A stretch of 40,000 nucleotides of DNA from an uncultured Alphaproteobacteria bacterium (GCA_963842175.1 CAWJFM010000023.1:1396751-1436750), one strand, 5' to 3'. Shown: positions 11,562 to 29,039, counted from the stretch's first letter. Notes: generated by a model not told the origin, from the letters alone. Program-made: numbers and translations.

Positions 11562-11600
11562 CCGTCTCCCCCCGACGCCGACCCCTTTTGAAGAGGCAGG

Positions 11601-11993: not shown

Positions 11994-12127
11994 CTCTATA
12001 AGTAGATGGTTGTGTACAGCAACAGTACACAGGCATGCTGACGAACCTTGCCTCGGCTGTCAACAGGCAATCATCAGAAATGTGATAGAGCGGTGGCAGC
12101 GTTCAAGGCCCGCGCGGCTCGCGCTGG

Positions 12128-12151
12128 TCCCATCTGCGCCCGAATACCGAG
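12128..12151. repeat. right arm of a 24-bp perfect inverted repeat
   Basis: TCCCATCTGCGCCCGAATACCGAG is the reverse complement of 11253-11276. It is followed by the small palindrome CCGAG-TATT-CTCGG. Confidence 0.9.
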
Positions 12152-12238
12152 TATTCTCGGCTCCAGAAATCCTCTGCCGAGGGCATGATTTTAGACATCG
12201 CGTAAGTGTTGCGCTAGCTTGGTCCCATCAAGCCCGCC

Positions 12239-14341: not shown

Positions 14342-15193
14342 TCAGCATGCAGTGCTTGTGTAGAAATTGCCGCCGTTCCAGCAGACGGCATGACCGCCGA
14401 GACTGGTATCGATGTAGAGCACCGTCTCGCTGATATGACCGCTGCTGTCGGTCTGAAGGATGGTGTTGGCCCCGGAATTGCCGATCGGTGTCCCCGTCGC
14501 CAGCGCGGTGCCGCCGGTGCCGCTCCATCGCACGACATAACCGTCGGTTGAGCTACCCGGCCCGGTCACGAGATTGGCGATGACCGAACTCGACAGATGG
14601 CCGCTTGAGTCCGTCTCCATCACCGTATTGGCGCCGGAATTGCCAACCGGATAACCGGTCGCCAGCACACACCCGTTGGTGCTGCCCCACGATGCGACAT
14701 AACCGGCGGTCGTGCTGCCAGGACCGGTGATGCAGAAGCTCCCCGTGATGCCGATCGCCGAGGCAGTTGCCGGCGTCGCTCCGACAACCCGGAAATTGCC
14801 GGAATTGTCGAATTCGAGGGCCAGCATTTCGTAATTGCCGGCCGCGGTGGTGACCGATGTGACGGAATGCCCGCTCGGAAAGAGGATATTCCCGCCGCCC
14901 GTGGCGTTGGTCTGCACCGTTACCTGGTGGGCGTTATCGTTGACGACCTTGATCGTCCAGCCCGATGGCAAAACCCCGGATGTCGTTGCATTGGCCGGTA
15001 ATGTGATCGTCAGCGTGCCGCCGGCGTTGTAGGCCGAAAACACTGACCCCGAATCGTTCGGCACTGCGGTGTAGCTGGCGGCCGACGGATAGCGCCAATA
15101 ATCGTTGGCGCTGATCAGCTGCGCCCGCGCGGGAGGGCAGCCGAGGCCGGCAAGCAGCAGGGCGCAGACGAGGGCAGCCGAGCGCAGCATCAT
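14342..15193 (-). CDS. tail-fibre-like repeat protein with N-terminal signal peptide
   Basis: 283 aa. ATGA overlap with the upstream tail gene. MMLRSAALVCALLLAGLGCPPARAQ signal. Two tandem ~54-aa repeats (TGPGSTTAGYVASWGSTNGCVLATGYPVGNSGANTVMETDSSGHLSSSV / TGPGSSTDGYVVRWSGTGGTALATGTPIGNSGANTILQTDSSGHISETV) at 14408-14731. Confidence 0.55.
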   Translation of the reverse strand: MMLRSAALVCALLLAGLGCPPARAQLISANDYWRYPSAASYTAVPNDSGSVFSAYNAGGTLTITLPANATTSGVLPSGWTIKVVNDNAHQVTVQTNATGGGNILFPSGHSVTSVTTAAGNYEMLALEFDNSGNFRVVGATPATASAIGITGSFCITGPGSTTAGYVASWGSTNGCVLATGYPVGNSGANTVMETDSSGHLSSSVIANLVTGPGSSTDGYVVRWSGTGGTALATGTPIGNSGANTILQTDSSGHISETVLYIDTSLGGHAVCWNGGNFYTSTAC

Positions 15194-15813
15194 GGCGGTG
15201 CACTCCCGACGAGGCTCCAGAACACCGAGGCGAGCGTCGCGTCGGGCGACGCCGGCGCGACGATCGTCAGCACGTCGCCGATCGCGAAGGCGGTCGCCGC
15301 CGACATCGTAAAGCTCGCGGTCGTCGCGCTGGCCGCGAACGCCATCGTCCCGACGGCGCTGCCGTTCTTTTCGATCGAGTAGGTCGCCGTCCCCGTCGCC
15401 GCGGTCCCCGCAGCGCCCTGGCTGCCGCTGAGCCCGGCCGGAAAGGTCGTCGCCTGGCCGAAAACATAACGCTGCACGACCTGTGACGGCGTGGTCGGCC
15501 CGCTATAGGAGGCCGCGACCACCATCGCCGCGGCGCCGGCGCCGGTCAGCGTGTAGGTGACGGCGCCGACCTCGGCGAGGCTCTGCAGGGCCTGGCCGAA
15601 GGTGTTGAACGATAAGAGCTTCACAAAGATCGTCGAACCGATCAGGTTTGCCGGATAGCTGTAGCGGAACAACGACGGGTCATTCGGGCCGAAGCGCGCG
15701 AATTGGGCGCCGCTCGAATGGCTGCCGATCGGCGTCCCGTAAACGCCGCGGCGCAGCAGCGTCGTCAGGTTGTAGCGGTAGGCGGCGGTGAGGTTCGCGG
15801 TCTCATAGCTGAC
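15190..15813 (-). CDS. 3' portion of a tail (host-specificity-type) protein gene split by the 13.2-kb insertion
   Basis: In frame from 15813: VSYETANLTAAYRYNLTTLLRRGVYGTPIGSHSSGAQFARFGPNDPSLFRYSYPANL...SLVGSAPP. Joins seamlessly to 29025-29690 once the insertion and one repeat copy are removed. Confidence 0.8.
   Translation of the reverse strand, partial: VSYETANLTAAYRYNLTTLLRRGVYGTPIGSHSSGAQFARFGPNDPSLFRYSYPANLIGSTIFVKLLSFNTFGQALQSLAEVGAVTYTLTGAGAAAMVVAASYSGPTTPSQVVQRYVFGQATTFPAGLSGSQGAAGTAATGTATYSIEKNGSAVGTMAFAASATTASFTMSAATAFAIGDVLTIVAPASPDATLASVFWSLVGSAPP
15799..15813. repeat. target-site duplication, left copy
   Basis: GGTCTCATAGCTGAC is identical to 29025-29039 and directly abuts the left terminal inverted repeat. 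Confidence 0.85.
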
Positions 15814-15887
15814 CCCCTGGGAGCACGTCCGTCCGAACGGCAGGGTAGAGTGGTGCGGTGGTCAACAAAACTAATTGACGTGTCGCT
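15814..15887. repeat. left terminal inverted repeat
   Basis: CCCCTGGGAGCACGTCCGTCCGAACGGCAGGGTAGAG... matches the reverse complement of 28951-29024 at 67 of 74 positions. The first 37 nt are perfect. Confidence 0.9.
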
Positions 15888-15920
15888 CCCAAATCGGCTT
15901 TGTCTACCGTATTGTCACTG

Positions 15921-16213
15921 CCCGGCCTCCGGTGTCCCGGCCAGCCCCGCTGCGCTCGTCGGGCCGCGCTGGTGCTCGCTGAGGCAGTTCCAGCTCGCCC
16001 CGGCCTTGGTTAGCTCGGCCGGCGCCCGTGCACCCCAGCGGGCGCTCGCTGAGGCGGTTTCCGGCCCGGCCTGGACTCGGGTAGCTCGTCCCCGCCGTTC
16101 CGTGGCCTCGCGGGCTTCGCTGGCGGTCGCTGAGGCGTTTCCGGCCGCGCCCGGCCTCAGATAGGTCGGTCGCCCGCTCGCTGCGCTTGCTGGGCCGCGC
16201 TGGCGCTCGGGGG
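15921..16213. repeat. left subterminal array of about 4 degenerate 65-85-bp tandem units
   Basis: Each unit starts CCCGGCCT and ends with a CGCTGG-GCTCGCTGAGGCGGTTTCCGG-like core (15961-15990, 16040-16064, 16117-16145, partial at 16195-16213). The same core occurs inverted at the right end and once internally at 17322-17353. Confidence 0.75.
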
Positions 16214-16424
16214 AAATGGATGGGTGGGGGTGTGCTGTTTCGTGACGCACCCGGACACCTCGGTGGGGTGCGGCACGCAGCAACCGCCGGGTCGATCACA
16301 GCTTGGCGATGCCCCGATTTACCATTGCCTGAGCCATTCAAAGGCACGACTTTGGCCACGACGTTGCCGGCAATTCTGGCGAATATCGGATTAACTATAA
16401 AGAGCCGAAGCCAGGGAGGGATAA

Positions 16425-16628
16425 ATGGGCGAGTGGGTAGTCATGGCAATCTTAATGGTCAACGGCTCTAATTTACGAGTTGAAGTGGACAAGGCCGCGA
16501 GCCTTCAAGAATGCAAAATGAAGGCTATGCAGGCATATGCTCATTTGCCAAATGGACCGATCTTTTGTCAGCACGTTGATCAAGTCGAGTTAATCGACGT
16601 TTACGGAAACGCCCGACCAATACAATAA
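16425..16628 (+). CDS. hypothetical small protein
   Basis: 67-aa ORF with the GGGAGGG RBS 5-11 nt upstream of the ATG. Low-GC codon usage. Confidence 0.4.
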   Translation: MGEWVVMAILMVNGSNLRVEVDKAASLQECKMKAMQAYAHLPNGPIFCQHVDQVELIDVYGNARPIQ

Positions 16629-16649
16629 ATCCAGAGTTGTTTGGATCAG

Positions 16650-17234
16650 ATGAGCGCTATGCCTAAAACATCCATGCAAGCCATGATGATCGTGGCCGTG
16701 CTCGCGATCGTTCCGGCGGCTTTGGCAGCAAGTGTCGCCACGCGCGTTGTGCTCTACGCGCCTTATGGAATCGACGGACGCCTTCGATCGGGATTTACCG
16801 CTAGCCTACCGGTCCACGGCTCGTGTTGGACTTCATCGCTTGCCTCAACTCGGCCGGACGCATGGCGGTGCATGACTGGAAACTTCATCCACGACCCATG
16901 TTTTAGCAATCCCGCAAAGACCCAGGTGGCCTGCCCATCCGATCCGTTTAGAAAAGCGGTACTGGTGATCGACCTCGACAAGGCATTGCCCGCGCATTAC
17001 GGACAGTCAGGACAAAGCCCGTGGGCGCTCCGATTAGCCAATGGTGCGATCTGCGGCTTCGTAACCGGTGCCACGGGCGTCGTTGCCGGAATGCGATTGA
17101 ACTATGGATGCACAGGTAAAGGCTGGGTGATCGGAGAGGTAGACCGGTCGACTCGACCCTGGCGCGTCTTTTATACCCCTGATACTCAAAGCGGGGATTA
17201 CGTTCAAGTTGACGTGTCCGAAGCGGTCCTTTGA
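16650..17234 (+). CDS. secreted hypothetical protein
   Basis: ORF 16641-17234, ATG at 16650. Signal peptide MQAMMIVAVLAIVPAALAASVA. Cys-rich mature part. No family recognised. Confidence 0.55.
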   Translation: MSAMPKTSMQAMMIVAVLAIVPAALAASVATRVVLYAPYGIDGRLRSGFTASLPVHGSCWTSSLASTRPDAWRCMTGNFIHDPCFSNPAKTQVACPSDPFRKAVLVIDLDKALPAHYGQSGQSPWALRLANGAICGFVTGATGVVAGMRLNYGCTGKGWVIGEVDRSTRPWRVFYTPDTQSGDYVQVDVSEAVL

Positions 17235-17560
17235 TTTGAGTGGGCTTTGACGCTGCACAGGGAGCAAAAGACGGGACGCACGGCTATGGTAACAGTATAA
17301 ACAAACCTATCGGCTAGACTTGGCCGCGCTCGCGGTCGCTGAGGCGGTTCGGGCGAACCGTTTTCCGGTCATCGGCTTTCCGAGCACGAACTTAGCCAGC
17401 AACGCGGCATTGGACCCCGGCTTGGGTCGGCTCTGAGCAACTTCGATTCTTCAATGTTGACCGCGGCACTCTGTGGGAAAACTTTAGATGGGTTTGCCAA
17501 GCCGTGGTTATTGACAGGGGGGCTTTGTCCTCCGCATTCGAATGATTTTCATAAGGCGCC

Positions 17561-17740
17561 TCACCGGAACTTAATCCCGGTCATCAAGGAAAAGATCAAC
17601 GCGACGACTCCGATCACGATACAGAAGATCCCGAAGGCTACTGCGCCTTCGTTGGCTTTCCTCTGCTCGTCGAGTGTAAGCCGGTTGCGCCGGTAAATTT
17701 GCCGGTATGGGTGTTTTTGACGGTCGGTCGTTTTCGGCAT
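17561..17740 (-). CDS. small membrane protein
   Basis: C-terminal 59 aa of ORF 17561-18319, from the ATG at 17740: MPKTTDRQKHPYRQIYRRNRLTLDEQRKANEGAVAFGIFCIVIGVVALIFSLMTGIKFR. The rest of that ORF is antisense to the recombinase gene. Confidence 0.4.
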   Translation of the reverse strand: MPKTTDRQKHPYRQIYRRNRLTLDEQRKANEGAVAFGIFCIVIGVVALIFSLMTGIKFR

Positions 17741-17818
17741 GGTGCTACTTCGCTTTAGGGACCCCCTCGCGGAGGTTCCAAAACCGTTAGAAATCCTAAG
17801 CTTTGGTGGGCGATCCGC

Positions 17819-18371
17819 ATGTCTTTCACCAGATATGCACGGGTATCGACGGACGGCCAAAGCGTCGACGCGCAGATCACGGCGTTGACCGTCGCCGGCG
17901 CTGAAAAAGTTTCCCGCGAAGTGGCGAGCGGAACCAAGACCGACCGGGCGCAGCTCTTCCGATTGCTCGACCGGCTCGACGACGGCGACGTGCTGATGGT
18001 GACGCGGCTCGACCGGCTCGCGCGCTCGACCCGCGATCTTCTCAATGCCCTCGCGGCGATCACCGGCAAGGGAGCCGGTTTCCACTCGCTCGGCGACGCA
18101 TCGGCGAACACGACACCGCCGCACGGCTGGTTGATGCTCACCGTGCTTGGCGGCCTTGCCGAGTTCGAGCGCGAATTGATCCGCACGCGCACCGGCGAAG
18201 GACGGGCACGGCCGAAGGCTCGCGGTGTCAAACTCGGCCGGCGGCCGAAACTTACCCCGCACCAGAAGCGCGAGGGCTTTGGCGCGGCGCGAAAAGGGCA
18301 AGGAGACACTTGCCGACATCGGCCGCAGCTACAACGTGAGCGCATGGACGATTTCAAGGCTGACAGCTTGA
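17819..18371 (+). CDS. small serine recombinase (resolvase/invertase family); one frame break near 18275
   Basis: YARVSTDGQSVDAQ (catalytic Ser motif), VTRLDRLARSTRDLL and LAEFERELIRTRTGEGRARPKARG. Dropping one G of GAGGGC restores the C-terminal HTH ALARREKGKETLADIGRSYNVSAWTISRLTA, with a stop at 18369-18371. Confidence 0.85.
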
Positions 18372-18410
18372 CCTCGCGCACGTTTGGACGCTGAGGAGGA
18401 AACGCAAACG

Positions 18411-19250
18411 ATGGGCCGCCCCTTCGATTCGTGGCAGGATTACCAGTTATTCTCCCGCGCCGTCCGGAAACACAGAAGATATATCAGGACTCCGTCAGAA
18501 CAGGCCTTTTTAGAGGCAGTACGCGTCACAGTGAAAGACCGTATAATAACTCGTCCGGCGGGATACACGTTTTGGCGCGCGCAGCGCGGATACTGTGTGG
18601 GGTCAACCGCAATGGACAACGTCGACATTATCGACGCAGTTCCGTATCCGTCGGAACGAATGAAACCTCGTACCAATCAAGCCTCCGAAGGCGGAGCTAA
18701 TCCAAAAGACATTCCATGTCTCTATGGCGCGACTTCTCCTGATACCGCTGTGGCGGAAGTAAGGCCATGGAAGGGAGAACTTGTTTCAATTGGCAAATTT
18801 ACTCTATGTCGTAACGTGAAAATAGTAGAATGTTTAAAATATCATGATGAAGACCCCCATGATGTCTTTCTGAATACGCTCTACCCTCTTATGACATCAG
18901 CTACGGGAGAGATTGTTGCGGGCGAGCCGGAACCCCCTTCAGACGAAGCTGTAATAAAAAACGTGTGGACGCATATAGATAAGGCATTCTCTGAACCAGT
19001 AACACACAGCGATGACCACGTAGACTACGTACCGACACAGAATTTAGCAGAATTATTCAAGACAGAGGATTACGATGGCGTGTGTTATCACAGTCAGCTT
19101 TCAGATATGGGTGTTAATTTGGCGTTTTTTGACCTAGAGATAGCAACAGTAGCAGGCCGCCATTTGCGCCAAGTGACTGACGTAAAAATAGAATCCAAAA
19201 TGCGCGAAGGCCGCGGGATTGATCCCCATTCCGGCAAGCCAAATAATTAG
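18411..19250 (+). CDS. RES-domain protein
   Basis: FWRAQ, GGANPKDIPCLYGATSPDTAVAEVRPWKG and YVPTQNLAELFKTEDYDGVCYHSQLSDMGVNLAFFD fit the RES family pattern. The usually conserved Arg of the GRxN motif reads Gly here. Markedly AT-richer than its neighbours. Confidence 0.65.
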   Translation: MGRPFDSWQDYQLFSRAVRKHRRYIRTPSEQAFLEAVRVTVKDRIITRPAGYTFWRAQRGYCVGSTAMDNVDIIDAVPYPSERMKPRTNQASEGGANPKDIPCLYGATSPDTAVAEVRPWKGELVSIGKFTLCRNVKIVECLKYHDEDPHDVFLNTLYPLMTSATGEIVAGEPEPPSDEAVIKNVWTHIDKAFSEPVTHSDDHVDYVPTQNLAELFKTEDYDGVCYHSQLSDMGVNLAFFDLEIATVAGRHLRQVTDVKIESKMREGRGIDPHSGKPNN

Positions 19251-19299
19251 AGATTTGGCGACGACTGGCGCGACGCGTAGGGTGTCCGTTGTCCTAGTC

Positions 19300-19625
19300 A
19301 TGGCGATCTTAACCACCGCTTTGCTGATCACGTCATCGGAAGCAGCGCAGCCGGGTAACTATAATCTGATCGGCGCCGGAACCATTTCATGCGGGAGGCT
19401 GGACAGCGTTGCGGCGTCGAGGGCAGGCAGACTTTGCCGAACAGTGGATTTTGGGCTTCCTCTCCGGAGTTGGCTATGAGGCAGGAGGGGATAACCCTCT
19501 GAACCCCCTGAATGGCGTTGATGCGGCTGCCCGTCTGGGCTTGGATGGATAACTACTGCCGAGCCAATCCTCTAAATACCGTCGCAGCCGCTGGTGCGGC
19601 ATTCGCTGCAACACATCCTCGCTGA
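19300..19625 (+). CDS. small secreted protein, spread over three frames
   Basis: MAILTTALLITSSEAAQ signal, then ...ISCG..., FAEQWILGFLSGVGYEAGGDNPLNPLNGVDAAA, and WAWMDNYCRANPLNTVAAAGAAFAATHPR in successive frames. Stop at 19623-19625. Confidence 0.4.
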
Positions 19626-19703
19626 CTTTCCAGAATCCCGCGTTATCCGCCGCGCCAGTCTGCCGACTTTCCAGAAGTGACCTTATCGGCCATCCGGAGC
19701 GGG

Positions 19704-20135
19704 TCAAAACGGAACGTCGTCGTCGTCGAGATCGGCCGCGGCGGCGCCGCCACCGCTGAGCTAAGCCGCGCTGGCATCGTCTCGCCGACCGTCGAGCATG
19801 ACAAGCTTGCCGCGGTGCTGCGACAGCACGATCTCGGTTGCGCTGCGCTGCGGGCCTTCCTGATCCTTCCATTGGCGGGTCCGTAGCTGCCCCTCGATGT
19901 ATACTTTGGAGCCTTTGCGCAGATATCTGAAGGCGACTTCGGCGAGCTGTTCGCTAAAGATAGTGATGTGATGCCATTCGGCACGCTCGCGCCGCTCGCC
20001 GCTAGTCCGATCGTGCCAACTCTCCGATGTCACGAGGTTAAATGAAATGACAACGCCGCCCGCCTGTGTCGCCCGCATCTCGGGATCGTGTCCGAGGTTA
20101 CCGATCAGGATTACTTTGTTGATGTTACCGGCCAT
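19704..20135 (-). CDS. ssb: single-stranded DNA-binding protein with an in-frame TAG at 19761-19763
   Basis: MAGNINKVILIGNLGHDPEMR...WHHITIFSEQLAEVAFRYLRKGSKVYIEGQLRTRQW is an OB-fold SSB. After the TAG the same frame continues LSGGGAAAADLDDDDVPF then stop, the canonical acidic SSB tip. Confidence 0.85.
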
Positions 20136-20138
20136 GAG

Positions 20139-22397
20139 TCATTCTTCATGCGGTAAAAAATCGATATGATCGGGCATACCTTCAAGCCAAACGTCTTCGC
20201 CCATCAGCTCCAATTCGCCGCTGTCATTAATCACCGTGATAAGCTTGTCGAAATCAGCCGGTTTATATCCTTCACTTTCGGCAAAGAGAGACCCGACGCG
20301 GGGAGACGTGGTCAGACTTCCATCGTCATTGACGACAACACGCATCCGGTGCCGCTTGCTATCCCATTCAAAGGTTTCGTGGCGTGTTTCGTCCTTCCAT
20401 TGACCTGCAAGCCAGGACTTGCCGCGGGCAAGTGCCAGCCGGTTCCCGTAAAATACAGGGATGGTTACAGGAACCGAGGGGAGCTTCCGTTCTTTCAGAA
20501 GGAGTTCTTTGGCGCCAGGTCGGCATAAAAGCTCGAACCATTCCTCGAACGTTCGAATAAATTGCGGGGCTGCCTTACCAATCACAGAACGTTTGACACC
20601 GCGCGATTTGATACGATCGGTCAATTCAGAAGCCGAGTCATCCGAATGACGCAGCAAGGTCGGTGAAAAATACACTCCGGGCTGAGCGATAAAGAGATCG
20701 GGCCATTGCTTCAATTCCCATTGCCCCAGCCCCTTACCGATATCGAGCGCGAGGGGTCGGGTGCTGAACACAGCATCGGTTGCGATCATCACCACCGCCT
20801 CGGGGTCTTGCCCGACTGCTTCCATGATCCGCGCTCGCGTTATTGCGGTGATCAAGCCGGCCTCTACCACGTCGTGATAAGGCCCGTGTCCGCTGCGCTG
20901 GGCGCGTTTGCCGTAAAGTGAGTTCAGCGCGAGCTTGAGGGGATAGCCTTTGGTCGAGGCGCCCAATCGTTGCCGTTCCACGTAAACCTCGGTGATCCAG
21001 TCATACGGCCGGCAATCGCAGCAGCGCTTGGCGATCCAAACATCGTGAACGGTGATGATGTCAGCTTGCAGGTGCTGGCAAGCCGCTTCGATTTCCGGTG
21101 ACCAATACCACCCGGTTCCGCGCAACGGCCAGAACAAGCCGCCCTTCTGCCGAAAAGGAAAGCCGCACCACAAGCTATCGGGCGGATGCGAGAACGTCAC
21201 CTTGGCAAGATAAAGTTCGCCGTTGGTCGGCAACCGCCGACGTCGGCTGTGAACCCATCGCGTATGTTGCGGGCATGGCATTTGCAGCATTCCCGCGGGA
21301 TAGGCGCTTTTGAGATCGTTTTCGAACAAGGGACCGGTGAGGAAACCGATCCGCGAAACCTCGAAGCGCCCGCCATAGTACGCAAGGTTCGCGGCGATTT
21401 CTAATTCACGATCTCGCTCGGGCCGGCGCGGCGACGGATTGTTGGAAGGCTTACTTTCCGCCGCCTCCCGCTGTTCTCTGGCAGTCAATGGCCGCTTCAA
21501 CGCACCGTGTTGTTTGAGCATTGCTGCAGCAAGCCAACCAGCTCCGGCCCATCGTTCCGGGCGAATTCCGGCGGCATAGCATACCTCGCGGAATTCGGTC
21601 ATGAGCACAGCGAGATAACGGCATTCCAAAGTGCAATATTCAATCATCTGGTCGGTTAATTCGGTAAATTCGTTCCTGATATCCTTATTCGCCTTAATGA
21701 TAGCGCGCTCGGCCTCATTACCGATGTTCCAATCCGTAATAGCTTTCACGAAAGTGCATTGAAAAAACCCAAGCGTTTCATAAACCGTTCGGCTTGATCC
21801 TTTCAAGACCCTCGGCTTCGGCCCGCTCCGATCGATCCGAGCGACGCGCAGGTATTGTCCTTGCTGATAGGTGATCGCGTATTCTCTCCAGAATACCGGG
21901 ATCGGCCCGTTCTTGCCCTGTCGTGGATTGATGATTTCCCGCAGCTTTTGGCCAGGAATACCCCGCAGGATTTGGGTTGCGTCGTAACCAATACCATATC
22001 CTACGAGAATAGGTTCTTTGGGAAGGCTCAGCAGAAATTCAAAACAATCTACAATGGACAACGCTTTGCCCTTATTGTGACGAATGTGCTTTGTCTCTCC
22101 CGATGCGTCCGCGGCGACCATCAATAAATAATGCTGCCGCCCGAGATAGTCCGTTCCGCCGCCTTCTCCGTCTATTGCCAGGAACGGGCGGAGTTCCCCG
22201 TTGGCGCGTGCTTCCCGCTTTCGCTCGCGTTCGCGTCCGAACTGTTCGGGAGTTTGTCGCTGGCGAGCGTCGCGCTTGCGGCGGCGTTCTTGCTCGCGCC
22301 GCGCTTCGACCTCCAGCGCATATTCCGGCCCCAGCGCCTTGATCCTCTCGCGGACGTACTCGACCGCAGCCGCAGCGTCGGATGGTAAGGTTGTCAT
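20139..22397 (-). CDS. family-B DNA polymerase (752 aa)
   Basis: Start at MTTLPSD (ATGA overlap with the upstream ORF). ExoI FLAIDGEGG, ExoII GYGIGYD, ExoIII YCTLECRYL. Motif A FENDLKSAYP, motif B KLALNSLYGK, motif C VMIATDAVF. KSRG lies where KxY normally sits. No frame break in 2.26 kb. Confidence 0.8.
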   Translation of the reverse strand: MTTLPSDAAAAVEYVRERIKALGPEYALEVEARREQERRRKRDARQRQTPEQFGRERERKREARANGELRPFLAIDGEGGGTDYLGRQHYLLMVAADASGETKHIRHNKGKALSIVDCFEFLLSLPKEPILVGYGIGYDATQILRGIPGQKLREIINPRQGKNGPIPVFWREYAITYQQGQYLRVARIDRSGPKPRVLKGSSRTVYETLGFFQCTFVKAITDWNIGNEAERAIIKANKDIRNEFTELTDQMIEYCTLECRYLAVLMTEFREVCYAAGIRPERWAGAGWLAAAMLKQHGALKRPLTAREQREAAESKPSNNPSPRRPERDRELEIAANLAYYGGRFEVSRIGFLTGPLFENDLKSAYPAGMLQMPCPQHTRWVHSRRRRLPTNGELYLAKVTFSHPPDSLWCGFPFRQKGGLFWPLRGTGWYWSPEIEAACQHLQADIITVHDVWIAKRCCDCRPYDWITEVYVERQRLGASTKGYPLKLALNSLYGKRAQRSGHGPYHDVVEAGLITAITRARIMEAVGQDPEAVVMIATDAVFSTRPLALDIGKGLGQWELKQWPDLFIAQPGVYFSPTLLRHSDDSASELTDRIKSRGVKRSVIGKAAPQFIRTFEEWFELLCRPGAKELLLKERKLPSVPVTIPVFYGNRLALARGKSWLAGQWKDETRHETFEWDSKRHRMRVVVNDDGSLTTSPRVGSLFAESEGYKPADFDKLITVINDSGELELMGEDVWLEGMPDHIDFLPHEE

Positions 22398-22810
22398 GCT
22401 GCCGCCCTGCGACGGATGCCGGCGCGTGTCGAGTAGTAGAGGCGCCACAGCGAGCCGCGATAAAACGGCCACTCGGCGAAGGGATCGGGAGCGCTCGGCG
22501 GCACGTAGTCGGGATAGCGTTGAACCGCTGCCCGGAACCGATCTTGTTCGTTGATCGACAGCGCGTTGAACAGGCTGCGGTCGCGGTCGCTGAGCGCGAC
22601 CCGGAACTCTTCCCGTGTTTCAATTGCCCGGATGCCGCGCCGCGCTGCCGCTGCCCGCCGCTGCGCCCGGCGGCGCGCCTCGGGATTTTTCGCACGGGCC
22701 GCTCGCGCTTCGGCGAGCGCTCGGCGCCTGCTCAGCTCGGCCCGGTGCTGCCGCTCGTAGGAAGGAGTGCCGGGCCGGTACGGATTGCGTCGCGGGCGCC
22801 GCTCAGCCAT
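22394..22810 (-). CDS. basic hypothetical protein translationally coupled to PolB
   Basis: MAERRPRRNPYRPGTPSYERQHRAELSRRRALAEARAARAKNPEARRR...FAEWPFYRGSLWRLYYSTRAG. Its stop overlaps the polB ATG. Confidence 0.5.
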   Translation of the reverse strand: MAERRPRRNPYRPGTPSYERQHRAELSRRRALAEARAARAKNPEARRRAQRRAAAARRGIRAIETREEFRVALSDRDRSLFNALSINEQDRFRAAVQRYPDYVPPSAPDPFAEWPFYRGSLWRLYYSTRAGIRRRAAA

Positions 22811-23166
22811 GGCGTGCCGCCACATGAAAATGGCGAGCCTCCCGCCAGCGCGGGCGCGAGCCTAAAACGAAAAAGTCCGGGTCCGGCGAGAACAAAATCG
22901 GATCGAACCGCGGTCGGAATTCGTCGGCATCGAGCGCCACAGCGAGCCGCGCATACGCGGCAGTCATTGGCCGCGCTCCCACCGCGGGACCTCGGCATTG
23001 CCTCGCTCCGCCCGCCATGGTAAAGCGTTCACCATGAAGTTCCCCCCTCCGCGGCAGCCGCCGTGGTTGTATGGACTGGGCGACCGATATCATGTGCGGA
23101 AAAATGCCGCAAGAAATATCGGGAGCATGCCTTCTTTTCAAACAGAATCAGTGCTATAAGAGGCGC

Positions 23167-23793
23167 ATGAACACCAAGCGCCAGGCCTTGGACGCCACCT
23201 CAGCCCTCAAATCCGGCGACCTCTCGAAGGCCGTTAGGCTTGCGGCCAAAGCCGCCAAAACCGCCAAAACCGCCGAAGATGGTCTACTACCTCTGCTCAA
23301 CGAGGCCATGCAGGCAGGGATAGCCCTCGGGCAGGCGAGCGGCAAAAGCGAGGCTCCGCCGCCGGAAGCATTGGGATTTTTGCGCTTTTTAGCGGCAGCG
23401 CCGGTTGCCGCGGAGGGCTTTCGGACACTGCGGGAAAGCCTCGGAATCTCGCAGGCTGAGATTGCCGAAATGTGCGGCGTCTCCCGCGCGGCTGTGTCCG
23501 ACTGGGAGCGTGGCAAAGCGTCTCTGCCGCCAGCCGCCGTTCATGCCCTTCTCGGGTTAACGATGGCCCGCCTTGGTCGGGCCGAGCCGGCGCCGCTGCT
23601 CGGCAGCGATATAGCCAGGATTCGCAAAGCACTCCGGATGCGGCAAACCGATTTAGCCGCTGCACTCGGAGTCAGCGAGATCGCGGTCAGGAAATGGGAG
23701 CAGCGTGGCGATCAGCCGCTTGCTTCATCGACGGTTCGCCGCATCCAGCCCCGGCTCGACGAACTACAGGCGCAAGCGTCAGCAGCGTCTTGA
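23167..23793 (+). CDS. DNA-binding protein with two XRE/Cro-type HTH domains
   Basis: ORF 23071-23793 trimmed to the ATG at 23167. LRESLGISQAEIAEMCGVSRAAVSDWERGK and IRKALRMRQTDLAAALGVSEIAVRKWEQRG. Divergent from the polB operon and immediately upstream of the Cas1-like gene. Confidence 0.7.
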   Translation: MNTKRQALDATSALKSGDLSKAVRLAAKAAKTAKTAEDGLLPLLNEAMQAGIALGQASGKSEAPPPEALGFLRFLAAAPVAAEGFRTLRESLGISQAEIAEMCGVSRAAVSDWERGKASLPPAAVHALLGLTMARLGRAEPAPLLGSDIARIRKALRMRQTDLAAALGVSEIAVRKWEQRGDQPLASSTVRRIQPRLDELQAQASAAS

Positions 23794-23833
23794 TCTGATC
23801 ACTCGGTTCAAATTCGAGCCGCTCGGATCGGGA

Positions 23834-23864
23834 TTGATTTTAATCGCCGTCGAATTGGTATAGT
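23834..23864 (+). promoter_or_regulatory. candidate promoter for the Cas1-like gene
   Basis: TTGATT (23834-23839) and an extended -10 TGgTATAGT (23856-23864). The spacer is 19 nt, longer than optimal. Lies in an AT-richer gap. Confidence 0.25.
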
Positions 23865-24100
23865 ATTGAATTTGCTCCGCAAAGGGGCGCACCGGAGCAG
23901 GCGCTGGAACGCCTGCCCCGGCACTTGATCAACGATGCGATAGGAGCGCACCGTGACCCTGCTGATACGTGTTCCCAAACCTCAGAGGCGTCAACCGGGT
24001 CGTTGCCCGCTCTTAGACGGACAGACCGTCCCGACTGCGGGCATTCTGTTCAATCGCTGCATCGTCCACCCGAGCCAAACGGAAAACCGGAGGCTCCCTC

Positions 24101-25744
24101 ATGCACGCCGATGACACGAACTACACCGTCATTAAGAATGGCGTGGTTGTCGTGAGCGGCACCGGCCCGGCGATCCGCGTCGACGGCAACAAGCTGGTCA
24201 TCCGCGACGGCCCGAAGGAAACCCCGCCGCTCGCGCTGACGCGGGCGGAAGCCTCGCGAAGGCTGCGACATATCATCGTCACCGGGCAGGCCGGCGGCTT
24301 CATCACCTTCGACGCGCACCGATGGCTGCGCGACACGGGTGTTGCGTTCTCTCAAGTCGATTGGGATGGGAGCGTCATCATTGCTTCCGGATCGCGACGA
24401 CCCGACCGGCCGGCGCTGCGCCGGGTGCAAACGCTCATATGCAGCGGAGTCATTCCACAAACAGCGGTCGCCATCACGCGCGAAATCCTGCGCGTCAAGC
24501 TGGCCGGCCAAGCTGAGGTTGCCCGGCTGCTAGGGCGGGCGGAGGCGAGCGCGGCCATCGCCGGCCTCACTGCGGACATCGCTCGCGAGGCGGCCGGCCC
24601 AAAGGTGCTGGCGATCGAAGCGAAGGCGGCCTCGATTTACTGGCGCGAGTGGGCAACGGTGCCGGTGCGGTTCGCCCGCGACAACCCGCAGCGGCTCGAT
24701 CATAAGGGACGATGGCGGCCCGGCCGAGCCGCGGCATGGCATACATTCGGAAGCCGGGTGTCGGCGTTGACCGGTAAGCCGCGGCGGGCGACTACGGCCG
24801 GCAACGCGATTCTCAATTTCCTGCTAGGGATCGCAAAAATCGAGATGACCGTTGCCTTGTACGCGGTCGGACTCGACGCAGGGATTGGACTATTTCATGC
24901 CGATGAGGACGGCCGCCCCTCGCTGGCGCTGGATGCGCAAGAGGCAGTCCGTCCGTATATCGACGCATGGTGTCTCTCGTTCCTGGCAGCGACGGCTTTC
25001 GCCAATCGTGATTTCCACGAAACCGCAGAAGGTGAGGTTCGGCTTACCCATCCGCTCACGGCGCACCTTGCACATATGGCCGCGCTGTGGCGGCCGGCGT
25101 GCGAGCGGGTAGCGGCATGGCTGGCGCAGGCGTTCGCCGGTACGGTTGACCTTCCCGCCGACAAACCCGGCGCTGACGATCTGCCGCGGATCGCTGCCGC
25201 TGTCGCCGGGCCGCGGAAGCGAGGCGCGCGGCAACTGGCGCCCTTACCTCGACTGTTGCCGGTGCCCACCGGGCGGGACTTGAGTAGCCTGCCGGCACTG
25301 CGCGGCGGCTTGCGCGACAACCCCGTACCGCAGGCGTGTTTCGAATGCGGCCGAGCGCTGACGCGGAAGCAACGCCGTTTCTGTTCGACCGCTTGTACAG
25401 CCGCCTTTTCTACGGCCTCGGGGCGGATCGCAGCGATGCGTGAATTGTCTGCGGGATCAACCGACCGTTCCGAAACCCTTCGCGCCGCCAATGCCGCACG
25501 ACGCGAATGGGCAGCCCATCACGCCGCGGATCGGGTCGCCTTCGATCGCTGGTATTCGGCTGCGATAGAGCCGCGCCTTACCTCGCTCCGCACCGCCGAT
25601 ATTCGGCGCTCCCTTGCGGTGTCCTGGAGTTATGCTACCCTCATCAAGCAGGGGCGGCGAACGCCACACCCGCGACATTTTCCGGCCTTAGCGAAGCTCG
25701 CCGGGGTTGAGGCGCCGAGCATCGGCGCGGCGGGTAGCGGATGA
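24101..25744 (+). CDS. cas1: Cas1-like integrase (putative casposase) with a C-terminal Cys4 and HTH-like extension
   Basis: GGAGG RBS. HIIVTGQAGGFITFDAHRWLRDTGVAFSQVDWDG (N-terminal domain). AIEAKAASIYW (E173), TAGNAILNFLLG (N235), GLDAGIGLFHADEDGRPSLALDAQEAVRPYID (H266, D278/E281) match the Cas1 catalytic-domain pattern by eye. CFECG...RFCSTAC at residues 413-432. No frame break in 1.64 kb. Confidence 0.8.
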   Translation: MHADDTNYTVIKNGVVVVSGTGPAIRVDGNKLVIRDGPKETPPLALTRAEASRRLRHIIVTGQAGGFITFDAHRWLRDTGVAFSQVDWDGSVIIASGSRRPDRPALRRVQTLICSGVIPQTAVAITREILRVKLAGQAEVARLLGRAEASAAIAGLTADIAREAAGPKVLAIEAKAASIYWREWATVPVRFARDNPQRLDHKGRWRPGRAAAWHTFGSRVSALTGKPRRATTAGNAILNFLLGIAKIEMTVALYAVGLDAGIGLFHADEDGRPSLALDAQEAVRPYIDAWCLSFLAATAFANRDFHETAEGEVRLTHPLTAHLAHMAALWRPACERVAAWLAQAFAGTVDLPADKPGADDLPRIAAAVAGPRKRGARQLAPLPRLLPVPTGRDLSSLPALRGGLRDNPVPQACFECGRALTRKQRRFCSTACTAAFSTASGRIAAMRELSAGSTDRSETLRAANAARREWAAHHAADRVAFDRWYSAAIEPRLTSLRTADIRRSLAVSWSYATLIKQGRRTPHPRHFPALAKLAGVEAPSIGAAGSG

Positions 25745-25957
25745 CCCCCGTGCGCAGCGACATTGGGGGCGGCATTCATTGCGGCCTTCTCCGCGCTGGC
25801 CTGCGCTGTTGGGCAGCGCCAATCCATACTGTTCCCCGGTGCAGATCGTCCGCGTATCGGCTTCAAATGTTGCTGGCCTCCTGCAAATTCCCGAAGGCGC
25901 CCGGTCGAAGCGGCCCCGCGCTGGCGCGCCTTCAAATTTAGAGCGAGGCGGGCTTAA

Positions 25958-26648
25958 CTACAGGCTGGCACTTGCAGCCATCTGTGCCGCTCTGACGATC
26001 CGGTCTTGCTCCGCTTTCTCCTGATGCCAAACTTCTCGCTCCTGAGCGTAGGCTTCGAAATCTTGTCGGATTTTCTTCTCAGCCTGTGCGGCACCCTCCA
26101 AAACGGACTTACAACCCGAGGCAAGGTCAGTTTCGACCTGAAATGACACTCCGAGGGAGCTGCCACCGCTGCAAATGGCCGAGGTCGCATGGAGGAGCGG
26201 CAAGAAATTGTTGGCCCAATACTGATGGTTGTTCCGGAGAGTTGTCACCTGCATGTGGAGGTTGCTCGCTTGCAGCCCCATCTGGATTAGCTGAACCGAA
26301 AATTGCACCCGCGTGGCGCCAGTTTGTCCGGGAGCAGGTGAATAGAAAGTGCGTTCCCTTTCCAGACCGTTTCTCATCGCCGCGGTGATATCTCGATACC
26401 TTTGTTCGATCCTCTCCAACTGGCGAACGCGCTCGGCAACCGCAGAACTCAATACCTGCGTTGTCCGATAGAACCTGATTGATGTGTTCCCTCAGGCTCT
26501 GTTGCGCGGCTTGCTGCGCCTGCCGCGCTCGCTGTGCTGCCGCCTGTGCAGCTTTTTGCTGCTGTTCAGCTTGCCGAGCTGCGGCAATGCGAACCGCTTT
26601 CCGTTCCGTTACCGGACGGTGGGATTTCCGAGCAACATCGAAATACAT
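25958..26648 (-). CDS. coiled-coil hypothetical protein (one gene with a frame break near 26460, or two genes)
   Basis: MYFDVARKSHRPVTERKAVRIAAARQAEQQQKAAQAAAQRARQAQQAAQQSLREHINQ (from the ATG at 26648) runs into VLSSAVAERVRQLERIEQRYRDITAAMRNG... of ORF 25958-26452 after a 1-nt shift. Confidence 0.4.
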
Positions 26649-26869
26649 CTACCCGGTGTGAGCTGGACATGTTGGGCTGCGGCAATCGCGTCTATCGCCG
26701 AGTCCGGAAGCACGGCCACAATCGCAGCTCCAATTCCACCTTGGCGCATCGCCTCCTGTCGAATTTCGTCGCGCACGATCCCGCATGGGCTGAGTGTGCC
26801 GAATTTCAGTAGCACGACGCCAGCCGCGATTGCTACCAGAGCAATGCATATGAAGCCGGCTTCGCGCAT
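26609..26869 (-). CDS. membrane hypothetical protein
   Basis: ORF 26609-26881 from the ATG at 26869: MREAGFICIALVAIAAGVVLLKFGTLSPCGIVRDEIRQEAMRQGG... The tail overlaps the next gene by 40 nt. Confidence 0.4.
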   Translation of the reverse strand: MREAGFICIALVAIAAGVVLLKFGTLSPCGIVRDEIRQEAMRQGGIGAAIVAVLPDSAIDAIAAAQHVQLTPGRCISMLLGNPTVR

Positions 26870-26986
26870 CGCAGCCCCCAAAGGTCGGTGTGCGCCAAGT
26901 AGGCGTTAATGGTGAATATAAACCTAATACGGTTTATCATAGCGCTGTTGCTGGCGGTTTTCGAATGGCTGGCGATGGTGATCGGC

Positions 26987-27064
26987 ATGATCACCTCTCG
27001 GCAGATCAGAGCCGCTCACGCGCTTCTCGGCTGGTCTCAACAGCAGCTTGCCGACAAGGCATCT
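26987..27064 (+). pseudogene. 5' fragment of an XRE-type HTH gene
   Basis: MITSRQIRAAHALLGWSQQQLADKAS is a typical XRE N-terminus. Downstream, the + frame becomes the antisense of the minus-strand fragment. Confidence 0.45.
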
Positions 27065-27074
27065 CGTCAAAAAA

Positions 27075-27227
27075 TTAGGGGCGGGCGAGCCGCACCCCTT
27101 CTCCCTTCACGTCGGCCGCGAGAAATTCGATGCCGGCTTCCGTCAGTGCTTTGTGGACCGCCATCAACGTGCTCATCCTCGGGTCCACCTCCCCTCGCTC
27201 TAATCGCGCGAGCGCGTTGAGAGAAAT
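27075..27227 (-). pseudogene. 3' fragment of an XRE-type HTH gene, on the opposite strand to its 5' fragment
   Basis: ISLNALARLERGEVDPRMSTLMAVHKALTEAGIEFLAADVKGEGVRLARP then stop. No start codon or first helix upstream. Joining it to 26987-27064 gives a complete in-frame HTH protein. Confidence 0.5.
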
Positions 27228-27274
27228 GATTGGGCAGCCGGCGCTACCCTCGCGCGAAATACGAGAGGGAGGCA

Positions 27275-27537
27275 ATGCCGCATCGACGACGCATTTTGGC
27301 GACACTCGCCGCCCTTGGGTTGCTTCTGGCAACAATAGGCGGCGCGGCAGCTCAGTAACCGGGGGTTGGATTGCGGCTACTACGTCAACCGAAGCGGAGA
27401 AACGCCTCCGCGCCCATGGAAGCGTCAGGGAGGAACAACCGCCACGCGGCGCCACGGCAACATGCCGCGATGGGGAGTACAGCTACAGCCGGCATGATAG
27501 CGGCACGTGCTCCGGACAGGGCGGCGTGCAAAGCTGA
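27275..27537 (+). CDS. DUF3761-like secreted protein, spread over three frames
   Basis: GAGGGAGG RBS. MPHRRRILATLAALGLLLATIGGAAAQ signal, then GYYVNRSGE..., then PPRGATATCRDGEYSYSRHDSGTCSGQGGVQS (the C-DG-YS-S...GTCS-GGV signature). Confidence 0.6.
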
Positions 27538-27753
27538 CTCTGCTGAATGTCAAGCCGAGTGGGTGCGCCATGCAATTCTTCGCCGCCGCTTCGATCATAA
27601 TCGCCGGCATCGTCGGCACGATACTCGCGGTGTTTGATCGTTCTCGCGATGCGCCAAGGCTGGCGCGAGGGCGACGTGGTTGAAGTTCACTCGGCCCTGA
27701 CGGGATGCAGGTCATCGATCTCCAAGAGCGGCAGCACCGCGCAGAGTTCGCCG

Positions 27754-27948
27754 ATGATCACTGATCTCGACATTTACCGTGCTGCGAATTTGCTGATCGA
27801 GCGGCACGGCCCGAATGCGCTCATTGAGGCGGCCCGGCTAATCGATCGGATGCTAGAGCGCGGCGACCGCGATGGGCAACTTGTGTGGCTACGGATCAAG
27901 CGGGCGATCGAGGCGTTGCAAGCACCGCCGAGCGGGACGAGGCATTAA
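27754..27948 (+). CDS. hypothetical small protein
   Basis: ORF 27634-27948 trimmed to the ATG at 27754: MITDLDIYRAANLLIERHGPNALIEAARLIDRMLERGDRDGQLVWLRIKRAIEALQ. Confidence 0.5.
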   Translation: MITDLDIYRAANLLIERHGPNALIEAARLIDRMLERGDRDGQLVWLRIKRAIEALQAPPSGTRH

Positions 27949-28241
27949 TGACGAACGACCTGGAGATCATACATATTCTTTGGCGCGGACCATTAACATT
28001 GGCAGATGCAAGCACTGCCAATACAGGTGGCGACTACGGCGTGTATCAAATCTATGGCACACATGAAACAGGAGGACCTGATACGCTGCTCTATGTAGGT
28101 CAGGCTGATCGGGGAACGTTCGATGGCCGCATCCTGTATCATTATTCAGAATGGGGCCGGTGGAACCCCGATGATCTCAAAATTTACCTCGGACAAATGG
28201 CGGGGGTCAGGCCGATAACCAACGACGCTTGGGGCAATTAA
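27948..28241 (+). CDS. hypothetical protein
   Basis: ORF 27885-28241 trimmed to the ATG at 27948 (TAATG overlap with the upstream stop): MTNDLEIIHILWRGPLTLADAS... Lower GC. Confidence 0.45.
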   Translation: MTNDLEIIHILWRGPLTLADASTANTGGDYGVYQIYGTHETGGPDTLLYVGQADRGTFDGRILYHYSEWGRWNPDDLKIYLGQMAGVRPITNDAWGN

Positions 28242-28444
28242 CAGTTCGCGCATTCGATCGCTTCGATATCAAGAGAAACCCATCTTAATCGTAAATCACG
28301 GACGCAGACATCGCCTACCAGAATGCATCTCGACCCTTACCGAATTCATCAACACCGATGGTCGGCTAAAGCCATTTAGCCCGGATAATTCACGAAGTCG
28401 CATAAGGAGGGCGGCGGGAGCAGCATAAGCCGTTGGATTTGTGT

Positions 28445-28700
28445 ATGATTATGGTTGTTCAGGCCAGATCAACCGAAGCAACGGAGTTCGCGCCCGCCAT
28501 GGCGGAAGGTACGGGGATTCTGCCGGGTTTGCCAGCCGTCGCCGGCAAGCCGGTGTATGTCGGTTTCGATGGAGGACGGCTCACCTCAGATGCCGGTATC
28601 CTGTTGCTGTCAGCCGTCGAGCAGCGGCTTCGGATCGCCGAGCGCCTGGCCGCCTGCCTCGAAGACCCGCGCGACCCGGACAGGGTGCGACACGAGCTTG
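28445..28700 (+). pseudogene. N-terminal remnant of an IS1380/IS4-type DDE transposase
   Basis: KPVYVGFDGGRLTSDAGILLLSAVEQRLRIAERLAACLEDPRDPDRVRHEL resembles the N-terminus of DDE_Tnp_1_4-type transposases. The similarity stops after about 85 aa, where the ORF runs into the subterminal repeats. Confidence 0.5.
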
Positions 28701-28708
28701 CCGACGGC

Positions 28709-28940
28709 GAGGCCCGGCGAGCGCATGAGTGGCCGGCTGAGGCCGCCGAGGGGGGGCAAGCCAGAACCGCCTCAGCGGGCGCCAGCGAGGCCCGGCCAGC
28801 GCAGCGGGCGGCTGGCCGAGCTGTCCGGAGGCCGGGTAAGCCGGAACCGCCTCAGCGACCGCGAGCGAGGCCGGGCGAGCGCATCGAGCTACGCGAGGCC
28901 GGGCGACGCGAGGCCGGGCGACGCGAGGCCGGGCGACGCC
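28709..28940. repeat. right subterminal repeats, inverted relative to the left array, plus 3 perfect 15-bp tandem copies
   Basis: GAACCGCCTCAGCG cores at 28765-28778 and 28845-28858 are the reverse complement of the left-end CGCTGAGGCGGTT core. ACGCGAGGCCGGGCG occurs three times in tandem at 28891-28935. Confidence 0.75.
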
Positions 28941-28950
28941 AGGAAGTGGT

Positions 28951-29024
28951 AGTGACGCATCAATAGGTTTTGTTGACCACGGCACCGCTCTACCCTGCCG
29001 TTCGGACGGACGTGCTCCCAGGGG
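28951..29024. repeat. right terminal inverted repeat
   Basis: Its reverse complement matches 15814-15887 at 67 of 74 positions. The terminal 37 nt are perfect. Confidence 0.9.
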
Positions 29025-29039
29025 GGTCTCATAGCTGAC
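29025..29039. repeat. target-site duplication, right copy
   Basis: GGTCTCATAGCTGAC is identical to 15799-15813. Confidence 0.85.

Follow-up and report, generated by a model that had tools for sequence, protein, structure and literature searches.

A 40,000-nucleotide stretch of DNA from an uncultured Alphaproteobacteria bacterium (GCA_963842175.1 CAWJFM010000023.1:1396751-1436750), here called the window and numbered from its first letter, carries a casposon of a bacterial lineage in which a family-3-like casposase occurs together with a replication module of tectiviral type. The module, with genes for a small basic protein of 138 amino acids (p138), a family-B DNA polymerase (PolB) and a single-strand DNA-binding protein (SSB), lies within a complete element of 13,212 bp (15814-29025), which is a recently inserted member of a large family. 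The hallmarks of a casposon are all present, namely a Cas1 casposase whose catalytic site is intact, a gene for PolB, terminal inverted repeats (TIRs) and a 14-bp target site duplication (TSD). We regard it as fairly probable that p138, PolB and SSB constitute a replication cassette of tectiviral origin, which a capsid-less bacterial casposon combines with its family-3-like Cas1 casposase. The casposon integrase is regarded as the ancestor of the CRISPR adaptation enzyme, and to our knowledge the mode of casposon replication has never been demonstrated.

The boundaries of the element are set by the TSD, GTCTCATAGCTGAC, which is found as an exact direct repeat only at 15800-15813 and 29026-29039 (the left copy with an ambiguity of ±1 bp from adjoining C/G runs), and by TIRs of about 400 bp. 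The left TIR (15814-16209, plus strand) begins with the terminus CCCCTGGGAGCACGTCCGTCCG... and includes internal sub-repeats of 70-81 bp, the right TIR lies at 28753-29025 (minus strand), and the TIR 3' terminus reads 3'-GGGGGACCC...; the inverted-repeat arms pair as 15813-15891/28947-29025 (79 nt, 90%), 15946-16001/28753-28808 and 16113-16209/28776-28872. Deletion of 15814-29039 yields an uninterrupted open reading frame (ORF) of 426 amino acids that contains Rcc01698_C, a domain known from tail proteins of gene-transfer agents, and this restored empty site therefore identifies a true insertion of the 13,212-bp element. The interrupted host gene (15190-15813 joined to 29040-29690, minus strand) encodes an Rcc01698-like (gene-transfer-agent/phage tail) protein. 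The module belongs to a GC-poor island enclosed by the TIRs, the GC content being about 55-61% at approximately 16-24 kb, versus about 63-73% over most of the remaining window. Three further elements likewise have perfect TIR termini and their own TSDs of 13-14 bp at unrelated sites, and the terminal motif CCCCC(A/T)GGGAGCA is common to the window element and to two of these three (L001 and L016). A Glyco_hydro_25 lysozyme gene is among the neighbouring host genes, and the target may therefore be a gene-transfer-agent or prophage cluster.

The casposase gene (24101-25744, plus strand) encodes 547 amino acids with a C-terminal Zn-ribbon-like extension (Pfam Cas_Cas1, 3e-27) and, together with a gene for a helix-turn-helix (HTH) regulator, is divergent from the p138-polB-ssb operon. 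Its best match in the PDB is the Methanosarcina mazei casposase (6opm, 2.5e-13), with the catalytic Glu, His and Asp/Glu aligned. In blastp comparisons with the sequences of the Cas1 alignment that accompanies Krupovic et al. (2014), the highest scores were obtained with family 3 (AceAut-C1 with 38% identity and 166 bits, StrAlb 130, SacSpi 112, NitAL212 111 and HenMar 89 bits), followed by family 2 (67-80 bits), family 1 (37-44 bits, 18-20% identity) and CRISPR Cas1 proteins (43 bits or less); by these pairwise scores, which do not amount to a tree, the casposase appears closest to those of family 3. The described family-3 casposons (AceAut-C1, StrAlb-C1, NitAL212-C1 and HenMar-C1; Krupovic 2014, 2016) also have bacterial hosts and TIRs, the AceAut-C1 casposase has the same C-terminal Zn-ribbon extension, NitAL212-C1 has a 14-bp TSD and HenMar-C1 has a C-run terminus, all as in the window element. 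The companion genes differ: the literature classes the family-3 PolBs as RNA-primed (PMC4046053, PMC4779613) and as relatives of archaeal PolB3, and three of the four elements described have an HNH endonuclease and an HTH protein in common with family 2 (PMC4046053), whereas the window element has a polymerase of the tectiviral protein-primed type with p138 and SSB, no HNH gene was found among its ORFs scanned with Pfam, and its HTH protein is of a generic XRE type. The target differs as well, being a protein-coding gene here, whereas all family-3 insertions in the 2016 paper are intergenic. Queries of IMG/VR with the StrAlb and M. mazei casposases returned no family-3 or Streptomyces casposon loci.

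The three genes of the module lie on the minus strand in the order p138 (22394-22810; 138 amino acids from the second Met, or 143 if translation starts at the first Met at 22825), polB (20139-22397; a PolB of 752 amino acids) and ssb (19761-20135; an OB-fold protein of 124 amino acids; Pfam SSB 5.2e-33, TIGR00621 6e-40). The p138 TGA and the polB ATG overlap as ATGA (22397-22395), and only 3 nt separate the polB stop from the ssb ATG at 20135, so that the tight packing, the overlap and the short gap described in the initial annotation were all recovered. Its lower bound of 19704 for ssb has to be moved, since the reading frame is ended by an in-frame TAG (19761-19763) after codon 124, and 19704 belongs to a TGA 18 codons further on. 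The ORFs are real genes and not chance occurrences, because homologs are numerous in the protein collection (522 for PolB, 187 for p138 and 245 for Cas1, most of them from metagenome assemblies) and because of the Pfam match of SSB.

The affinities of PolB point to tectiviruses. Its sole family match in Pfam is PF03175, and none was found in NCBIfam. PF03175 is the organellar and viral protein-primed type. Searches of phage genomes by tblastn gave matches only in actinobacterial tectiviruses and in Acidianus bottle-shaped virus 2 (ABV2), with E-values of 2e-43 for Microbacterium phages, 6e-42 for Toil, 1e-27 for WheeHeim/Forthebois and 3e-7 for ABV2, and the same search of plasmids found no relative. 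The AlphaFold model of PolB (pLDDT 77, pTM 0.75) retrieved phi29 DNA polymerase as the top PDB match in Foldseek (E 2.5e-14, TM 0.61), followed by archaeal and herpesviral PolBs (about 1e-9, TM about 0.33); a predicted structure was needed for the phi29 link because PDB sequence searches, whether started from the protein alone or from the profile of its family, gave no polymerase above noise. Among models of viral polymerases the best matches were WheeHeim (1.8e-35, TM 0.72/0.79), Toil (5.7e-33), His1 (5.6e-24) and ABV2 (1.2e-18). Profile-profile scores from hhalign against the PolB family were 563 for the Toil group, 170 for His1 and ABV2, 119 for primer-independent PolBs (piPolBs), 101 for phi29/PRD1/Bam35, 39 (probability 16%) for family-2 casposon PolBs and 33 (probability 7.7%) for Escherichia coli Pol II. 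The six piPolB references, taken from plasmids of Staphylococcus, Limosilactobacillus, Fusobacterium and Helicobacter, were examined for TTDG and KH..KTRG and judged genuine, and the family-2 PolBs (about 890 amino acids, YMDTDS) were recovered beside M. mazei-type casposases in metagenome contigs. The window PolB is 27% identical to the Toil-like phage polymerases, and two of the nearest PolBs outside its family (P0243 and P0310) are 39% and 34% identical to it and lie on contigs (L111 and L112) that carry a PRD1 P3 double-jelly-roll capsid gene, one of them also P5 spike and PRD1_DD. Because of the profile ranking, the fold matches and these relatives on P3-capsid contigs, the window PolB is best classified, as far as sequence and modelled fold tell, as a tectivirus-lineage enzyme of the protein-primed type and neither as an RNA-primed PolB nor as a piPolB, a placement that is based on profile and fold scores, on pairwise identities and on the genomic context, not on a tree. 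The initial annotation had proposed a protein-primed or primer-independent clade rather than the RNA-primed type; the first half of that alternative is supported by PF03175, the tectivirus matches and the phi29 fold, the primer-independent half is disfavoured by the scores (119 vs 563), and the clustering with RNA-primed casposon PolBs that would have spoken against both was not seen for family 2. An exhaustive profile search recovered 6,983 clusters (at 50% identity) related to the PolB family at E<=1e-3, and 2,184 at E<=1e-30.

The family-2 casposon PolBs themselves (loci L031-L110) scored 94 with phi29/PRD1/Bam35, 93 with piPolB and 48 with E. coli Pol II, which fits the published remark that the PolB cluster of the A. 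boonei casposon (PolB_CDTDS) is related to both the main PolB and the protein-primed PolB (pPolB) groups; these profile scores sit uneasily with a simple 'RNA-primed' label.

The motif set of family B (Exo I/II/III, A, B and C) is present in PolB with its catalytic carboxylates, and every string listed in the initial annotation was located: ExoI D76/E78 (AIDGEG), ExoII D139 (GYD), motif A D361 (DLKSAYP; D361xxSxYP), motif B K488 (KLALNSLYGK; K488x3NSxYG), motif C A539-T-D541 (IATDAV) and K597-S-R-G600 (in IKSRGVKR, starting at I596), with K597 56 residues past D541 as had been estimated. Two deviations were noted, ExoIII being Y254x3E258, with Glu for Asp, and the first Asp of motif C being replaced by Ala. 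In an alignment of 27 homologs (48-85% identity to the window PolB), D76/E78, Y138-D139, Y254/E258, D361, S364, K488, Y495-G496, A539, D541 and K597-S-R-G600 are invariant throughout. Motif C reads ATD in WheeHeim, His1 and both tectiviral contigs, ETD in Toil and SCoupsA, and LTD in ABV2, and DTD is retained in phi29, PRD1 and Bam35. As judged from these alignments, ATD and K(S/T)RG are lineage traits of the PolB clade and not marks of inactivity, and they are not unique to the window PolB, one or both being present in Toil-like tectiviruses, uncultured proteobacterial tectiviruses, His1 and ABV2; ATD is not read as inactivity because piPolB, with TTD in motif C, is a proficient, active polymerase (PMC5695915).

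The KSRG element had been placed where KxY normally lies, and this placement is not borne out. In alignments with phi29, PRD1, Bam35, E. coli Pol II and KOD, made on the segment from motif C onward, the KxY column (phi29 KTY, Bam35 KMY, PRD1 KLY, Pol II KRY) is occupied by G574-V-Y576, 35 residues past motif C. The relatives agree (GVY in Toil and His1, GHY in SCoupsA, GLY in WheeHeim, GQY in ABV2): Tyr is retained and Gly stands in for Lys. Some 20 residues further on, KSRG occupies another conserved column, which contains KTRG in Toil, His1 and piPolB, KSRG in WheeHeim, KLRG in ABV2, K529-CAG in phi29, RMKG in Bam35 and VFKG in Pol II, so that the earlier statement that piPolBs carry a KTRG-type variant here was right as to the motif and its alignment with KSRG and wrong as to the column being KxY. 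In KOD this column reads TTRG, and by comparison with KOD/Pfu the KSRG-type element is presumably 'region V' of classical PolBs. The order of strands in the PolB model is consistent with this alignment (the motif-C hairpin spans 535-545, GVY is part of the strands at 562-577, and K597 immediately precedes the first thumb helix), and KSRG as a substitute for KxY was rejected on both grounds. By these alignments, K(T/S)RG would be the counterpart not of KxY but of the strand that follows it (phi29 K529, archaeal 'TRG'). Residue pairings from low-confidence regions of hhalign alignments were excluded from residue-level claims.

The spacing of the motifs bears on how PolB is primed, and here the search for TPR1 and TPR2 called for earlier gave a split answer. 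Motifs A and B are 127 residues apart in the window PolB, within the 120-137 of phi29, PRD1, Bam35, His1 and ABV2 and unlike the 74 of E. coli Pol II, and the intervening region is modelled as a beta-rich insert; a TPR1-sized insert is therefore considered present, as judged by size and fold match rather than by residue-level superposition. Motifs B and C are 53-54 residues apart in the window PolB family (53 in the window PolB), compared with 75 in phi29, 90 in PRD1, 96 in Bam35, 95 in His1 and 60-74 in the piPolBs examined, and TPR2 is judged absent because this spacing equals that of Pol II (54); WheeHeim (56) and ABV2 (50) lack TPR2 as well. Such a spacing, together with a casposase of the family-3 type, speaks for a polymerase that is RNA- or DNA-primed as reported for family-2/3 casposons, with a host primase making the primer and PolB only elongating it. 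We consider this very improbable, given the hhalign scores to Pol II and to the family-2 PolBs, the TM-scores of about 0.33 to archaeal and herpesviral PolBs versus 0.61-0.79 to pPolBs, the TPR1-sized insert and the fact that the Pfam scan of the element ORFs showed no HNH gene, which most described family-3 elements have; the canonical RNA-primed motif C (Y/CxDTDS) is likewise not found in the window PolB, the family-3 PolBs entering this comparison by published description only.

A second possibility is that PolB, like the piPolBs of pipolins (Redrejo-Rodriguez 2017), starts chains de novo on element ends or single-stranded DNA, p138 being a DNA-binding accessory protein and not a primer. 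Both enzymes have lost the first Asp of motif C (ATD here, TTD in piPolB), both share the K(T/S)RG column and a TPR1-sized insert, and pipolins are self-replicating mobile elements that, like the window element, have no primase gene; in addition, the homologous gene of Microbacterium tectiviruses is annotated 'DNA primase/polymerase' in GenBank, and p138 is unlike any known terminal protein (TP). These points are opposed by the profile score of 119, far under the 563 of the Toil-like group and the 170 of His1/ABV2, and by the motifs themselves. The piPolB motif C SxTTDG (TTDG in four of the six references, VTDG in Fusobacterium) is replaced by IATDAV with its invariant A539, and of the piPolB signature KH-x8-KTRG the KH lysine, which is required for de novo priming by piPolB (PMC5695915), is not conserved, the family consensus being PGVYWSPS..VKSRG and RH occurring at this position only in the window PolB and its closest relative. 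The piPolBs examined are also larger (about 1000-1150 amino acids vs about 750 in the window family) and have more residues between motifs B and C (60-74 vs 53), and pipolins are circular and carry Y-integrases, whereas the window element has TIRs and a casposase and no Y-integrase was found in it. Since ATD and KTRG are moreover present in tectiviral PolBs adjoining PRD1-type capsid genes, de novo initiation of this kind appears unlikely.

Among known systems, the PolBs of Toil-like and PRD1-like tectiviruses (Rhodococcus phage Toil, Streptomyces phages WheeHeim/Forthebois, Microbacterium phages Badulia/SCoupsA and the metagenomic contigs L111/L112) are the closest, belonging to the same clade with 27-39% identity. 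They have likewise lost the first Asp of motif C, carry GxY for KxY, lack a TPR2-sized insert and contain K(S/T/C)RG in all cases but the PolB of the L111 contig, in which no K.RG string was found, and a small ORF is located just upstream of polB, as here, with an SSB gene nearby in WheeHeim. They differ from the window PolB in their setting, being encoded in virus genomes with a double-jelly-roll capsid and mostly no integrase, according to the source papers, whereas the window PolB belongs to a capsid-less Cas1 transposon with a 14-bp TSD, and p138 is not detectably homologous to the tectivirus upstream proteins. The family-1 casposons of Thaumarchaeota also combine a PolB of the protein-primed type with a conserved small upstream gene as a candidate TP, and their PolB is sister to the His1/His2 PolBs according to the paper describing it; in our structural comparison His1 ranks third, and it too carries ATD and KTRG. 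In contrast, the family-1 hosts are archaeal, their casposases are distant (18-20%) and the window PolB is nearer to bacterial tectiviruses than to His1, with family 1 compared by the description of its PolB only. Residues 1-70 of the window PolB form a basic three-helix N-terminal extension, in which 'RKRxAR..QTPEQRxRE' repeats occur in one to four copies, their number varying among homologs. N-termini are basic in the tectiviral relatives too (P0243 and P0310 among them), and a divergent subfamily (L018/L020) has a CxxC zinc-ribbon-like N-terminus instead. The region after KSRG is 152 amino acids long in the window PolB, compared with 43 in phi29.

The gene directly upstream of polB holds the position that TP genes have in PRD1, Bam35 and phi29, and p138 adjoins polB in the same way in L001, L004, L015, L016, L019 and L021. 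The protein has an isoelectric point (pI) of 11.6 and 25% Lys plus Arg, close to the Bam35 TP (pI 10.0, 25%), and the PRD1 TP is strongly basic as well. Nearly all of its 187 homologs are about 133 amino acids long, and among 34 aligned members the invariant residues include R12, G14, P108, P110, F111, R118, L124, Y126 and R129, with D109 nearly so; the protein is predicted to be all-helical (model pLDDT 80.6). The conserved family, the conserved translational coupling, the strongly basic character and the analogous basic ORFs that overlap polB in the divergent subfamily all point toward p138 as a candidate TP, an assignment that we hold to be plausible though short of probable. The polB-upstream proteins of WheeHeim (gp12, L009:1304-1699) and of the uncultured PRD1-like contig (L112:1862-2386) both end in LFWYH, and p138 has LWRLYYSTR near its C-terminus; the two may represent a shared priming or interaction motif of miniature TPs.

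If these parts act together, the casposase would excise and integrate the casposon, p138 and PolB would be made by coupled translation of a single message and associate with each other, and PolB would begin synthesis at the ends of the TIRs with a hydroxyl residue of p138 as primer, the favoured candidate being the invariant Y126 in the WRLYYSTR helix. Strand-displacement copying by PolB would follow, with SSB coating the displaced strand; an SSB gene accompanies the polymerase also in WheeHeim, Bam35 and phi29. Protein priming by PolB is thus a step that we infer, and a number of observations weigh against it. The enzyme lacks TPR2, it has lost the first Asp of motif C as the piPolBs have, and its KxY Lys is replaced by Gly. 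TPR2 is a hallmark of pPolBs and gives phi29 DNA polymerase its processivity and strand displacement. The candidate TP is about half the size of known TPs and has no detectable similarity to any of them; it matched nothing in Pfam, NCBIfam or PHROG, its model gave no significant Foldseek match to any PDB fold, and no convincing alignment was obtained with the proteins upstream of polB in Toil, SCoupsA and WheeHeim, for which PHROG likewise holds no annotation. In this copy of the element, furthermore, a nonsense codon cuts the acidic tip off SSB. The terminal C5 run, considered as a sign of sliding-back protein priming, was rejected, because the family-3 casposon HenMar-C1, reported with an RNA-primed PolB, has a terminus of the same kind.

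The window element is one of many. In eight loci with a common layout p138 is directly upstream of polB, with a short SSB downstream in some; Cas1 is linked to PolB in all related loci with enough flanking sequence, and the compact Cas1-p138-PolB-(often)SSB arrangement recurs across PolBs that are 50-87% identical. In two divergent loci (L018/L020; PolB 34-46% identical) Cas1 is downstream and a different Arg-rich basic ORF overlaps the start of polB. Eight of the nine host contigs from genomes belong to alphaproteobacterial metagenome-assembled genomes (one labelled only 'proteobacterium'), and the ninth is a short Burkholderiales fragment. Whether such an element might be a decayed tectivirus prophage with an acquired Cas1, its replication genes being relics, is a question about the nature of the element and not about its priming mode. 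The nearest relatives of PolB are indeed tectiviral, some copies carry frameshifts and the window ssb a nonsense codon, and Streptomyces 'family-3 casposons' have been re-read as Toil-like proviruses with Cas1 and a capsid gene (PMC5894146). These proviruses embody the same chimera, a Toil-like DNA polymerase with a family-3-type Cas1 in bacteria, but they are actinobacterial and encode a double-jelly-roll capsid, whereas the window family is alphaproteobacterial, about 13-16 kb in size and without a recognisable gene for a capsid or an ATPase. The Pfam scan of the element ORFs gave no capsid or packaging-ATPase domain, and the recorded gene calls of the sister loci include neither a double-jelly-roll capsid nor a packaging ATPase, very divergent capsids being detectable by structure prediction rather than by a Pfam-level scan. 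The recurrence of the layout, the intact ORFs, the perfect TIR ends with fresh TSDs at different sites and the hundreds of full-length homologs of PolB, p138 and Cas1 are likewise at odds with decay, which we regard as quite improbable.

A capsid-less alphaproteobacterial casposon with a tectiviral polymerase, p138 and SSB was not found described in open-access papers and preprints, and reviews and datasets to 2023-2024 recognise four casposon families with about 50 elements (PMC9939771, PMC9966878, PMC11551731). It is tempting, though tentative and rather less likely than not, to see in the window element the founding example of a fifth, abundant family of casposons that is bacterial, capsid-less and equipped with a tectivirus-derived protein-primed PolB and a new miniature TP of 133-138 amino acids. 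If so, casposases and tectiviral replication modules would have recombined repeatedly, and the TPR2-less PolB clade with ATD, GxY and K(S/T)RG would form a distinct functional class of pPolBs, with about 2,200 50%-identity clusters at E<=1e-30. The window family breaks the published rule of RNA-primed PolBs in bacterial casposons, offers a bacterial system in which casposon self-replication by protein priming can be tested, and ties casposon family 3 to tectiviruses through module exchange, which extends the single 2018 observation in Streptomyces. Two features treated so far as signatures of piPolB, a motif C without its first Asp and K(T/S)RG, are spread over a far larger assemblage of PolBs, and caution is therefore needed in motif-based predictions of primer independence.

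Beyond the TAG that ends ssb, 18 in-frame codons (LSGGGAAAADLDDDDVPF) and a TGA follow at 19704-19760 on the minus strand when translation is continued across the stop, and these codons still encode the canonical acidic SSB tip (..DLDDDDVPF). Because the TAG precedes them, the tip is lost in this copy, the TAG being a read-through site or else a nonsense mutation of recent origin. L004/L005 and L021 have a short SSB at the same place downstream of polB, and in the short SSBs of the sister elements the tip is wholly absent.

Among the remaining genes of the element, a serine recombinase of the resolvase/invertase type (17819-18394, plus strand; Pfam Resolvase 5.6e-36) and a toxin-like RES-domain protein (18384-19250, plus strand; Pfam RES 3e-14) are carried as cargo adjoining ssb, the two genes overlapping by 11 nt, and no cognate Xre antitoxin was identified beside RES. 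The regulator divergent from the operon (23071-23793, plus strand) is a double HTH protein of the XRE type, matching HTH_3 in two stretches (Pfam 1.1e-18). At the right end, a 5' fragment of a DDE_Tnp_1_4 transposase gene (28433-28966, plus strand; Pfam 5.2e-14, profile positions 3-59 of 435) enters the TIR sub-repeats and looks like the remnant of an insertion sequence (IS) inside the casposon end. The sub-repeats of the TIRs (15952-16220 and 28702-28943) contain GCGCTCGCTGAGGCGGTT, of which a further copy is found at 17312-17359 (1.1 kb inwards from the left end). A tandem repeat of 15 bp, CGGGCGACGCGAGGC, is located at 28885-28943; the sub-repeats and the tandem may be binding arrays for the casposase or a regulator. 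No tRNA gene was found. Outside the casposon, 35-nt inverted repeats at 11245-11279 and 12124-12158 (91% complementary) bracket 0.9 kb in the kilobase of lowest GC content (53%), and 11245-12158 may represent a small IS or an insertion resembling a miniature inverted-repeat transposable element.

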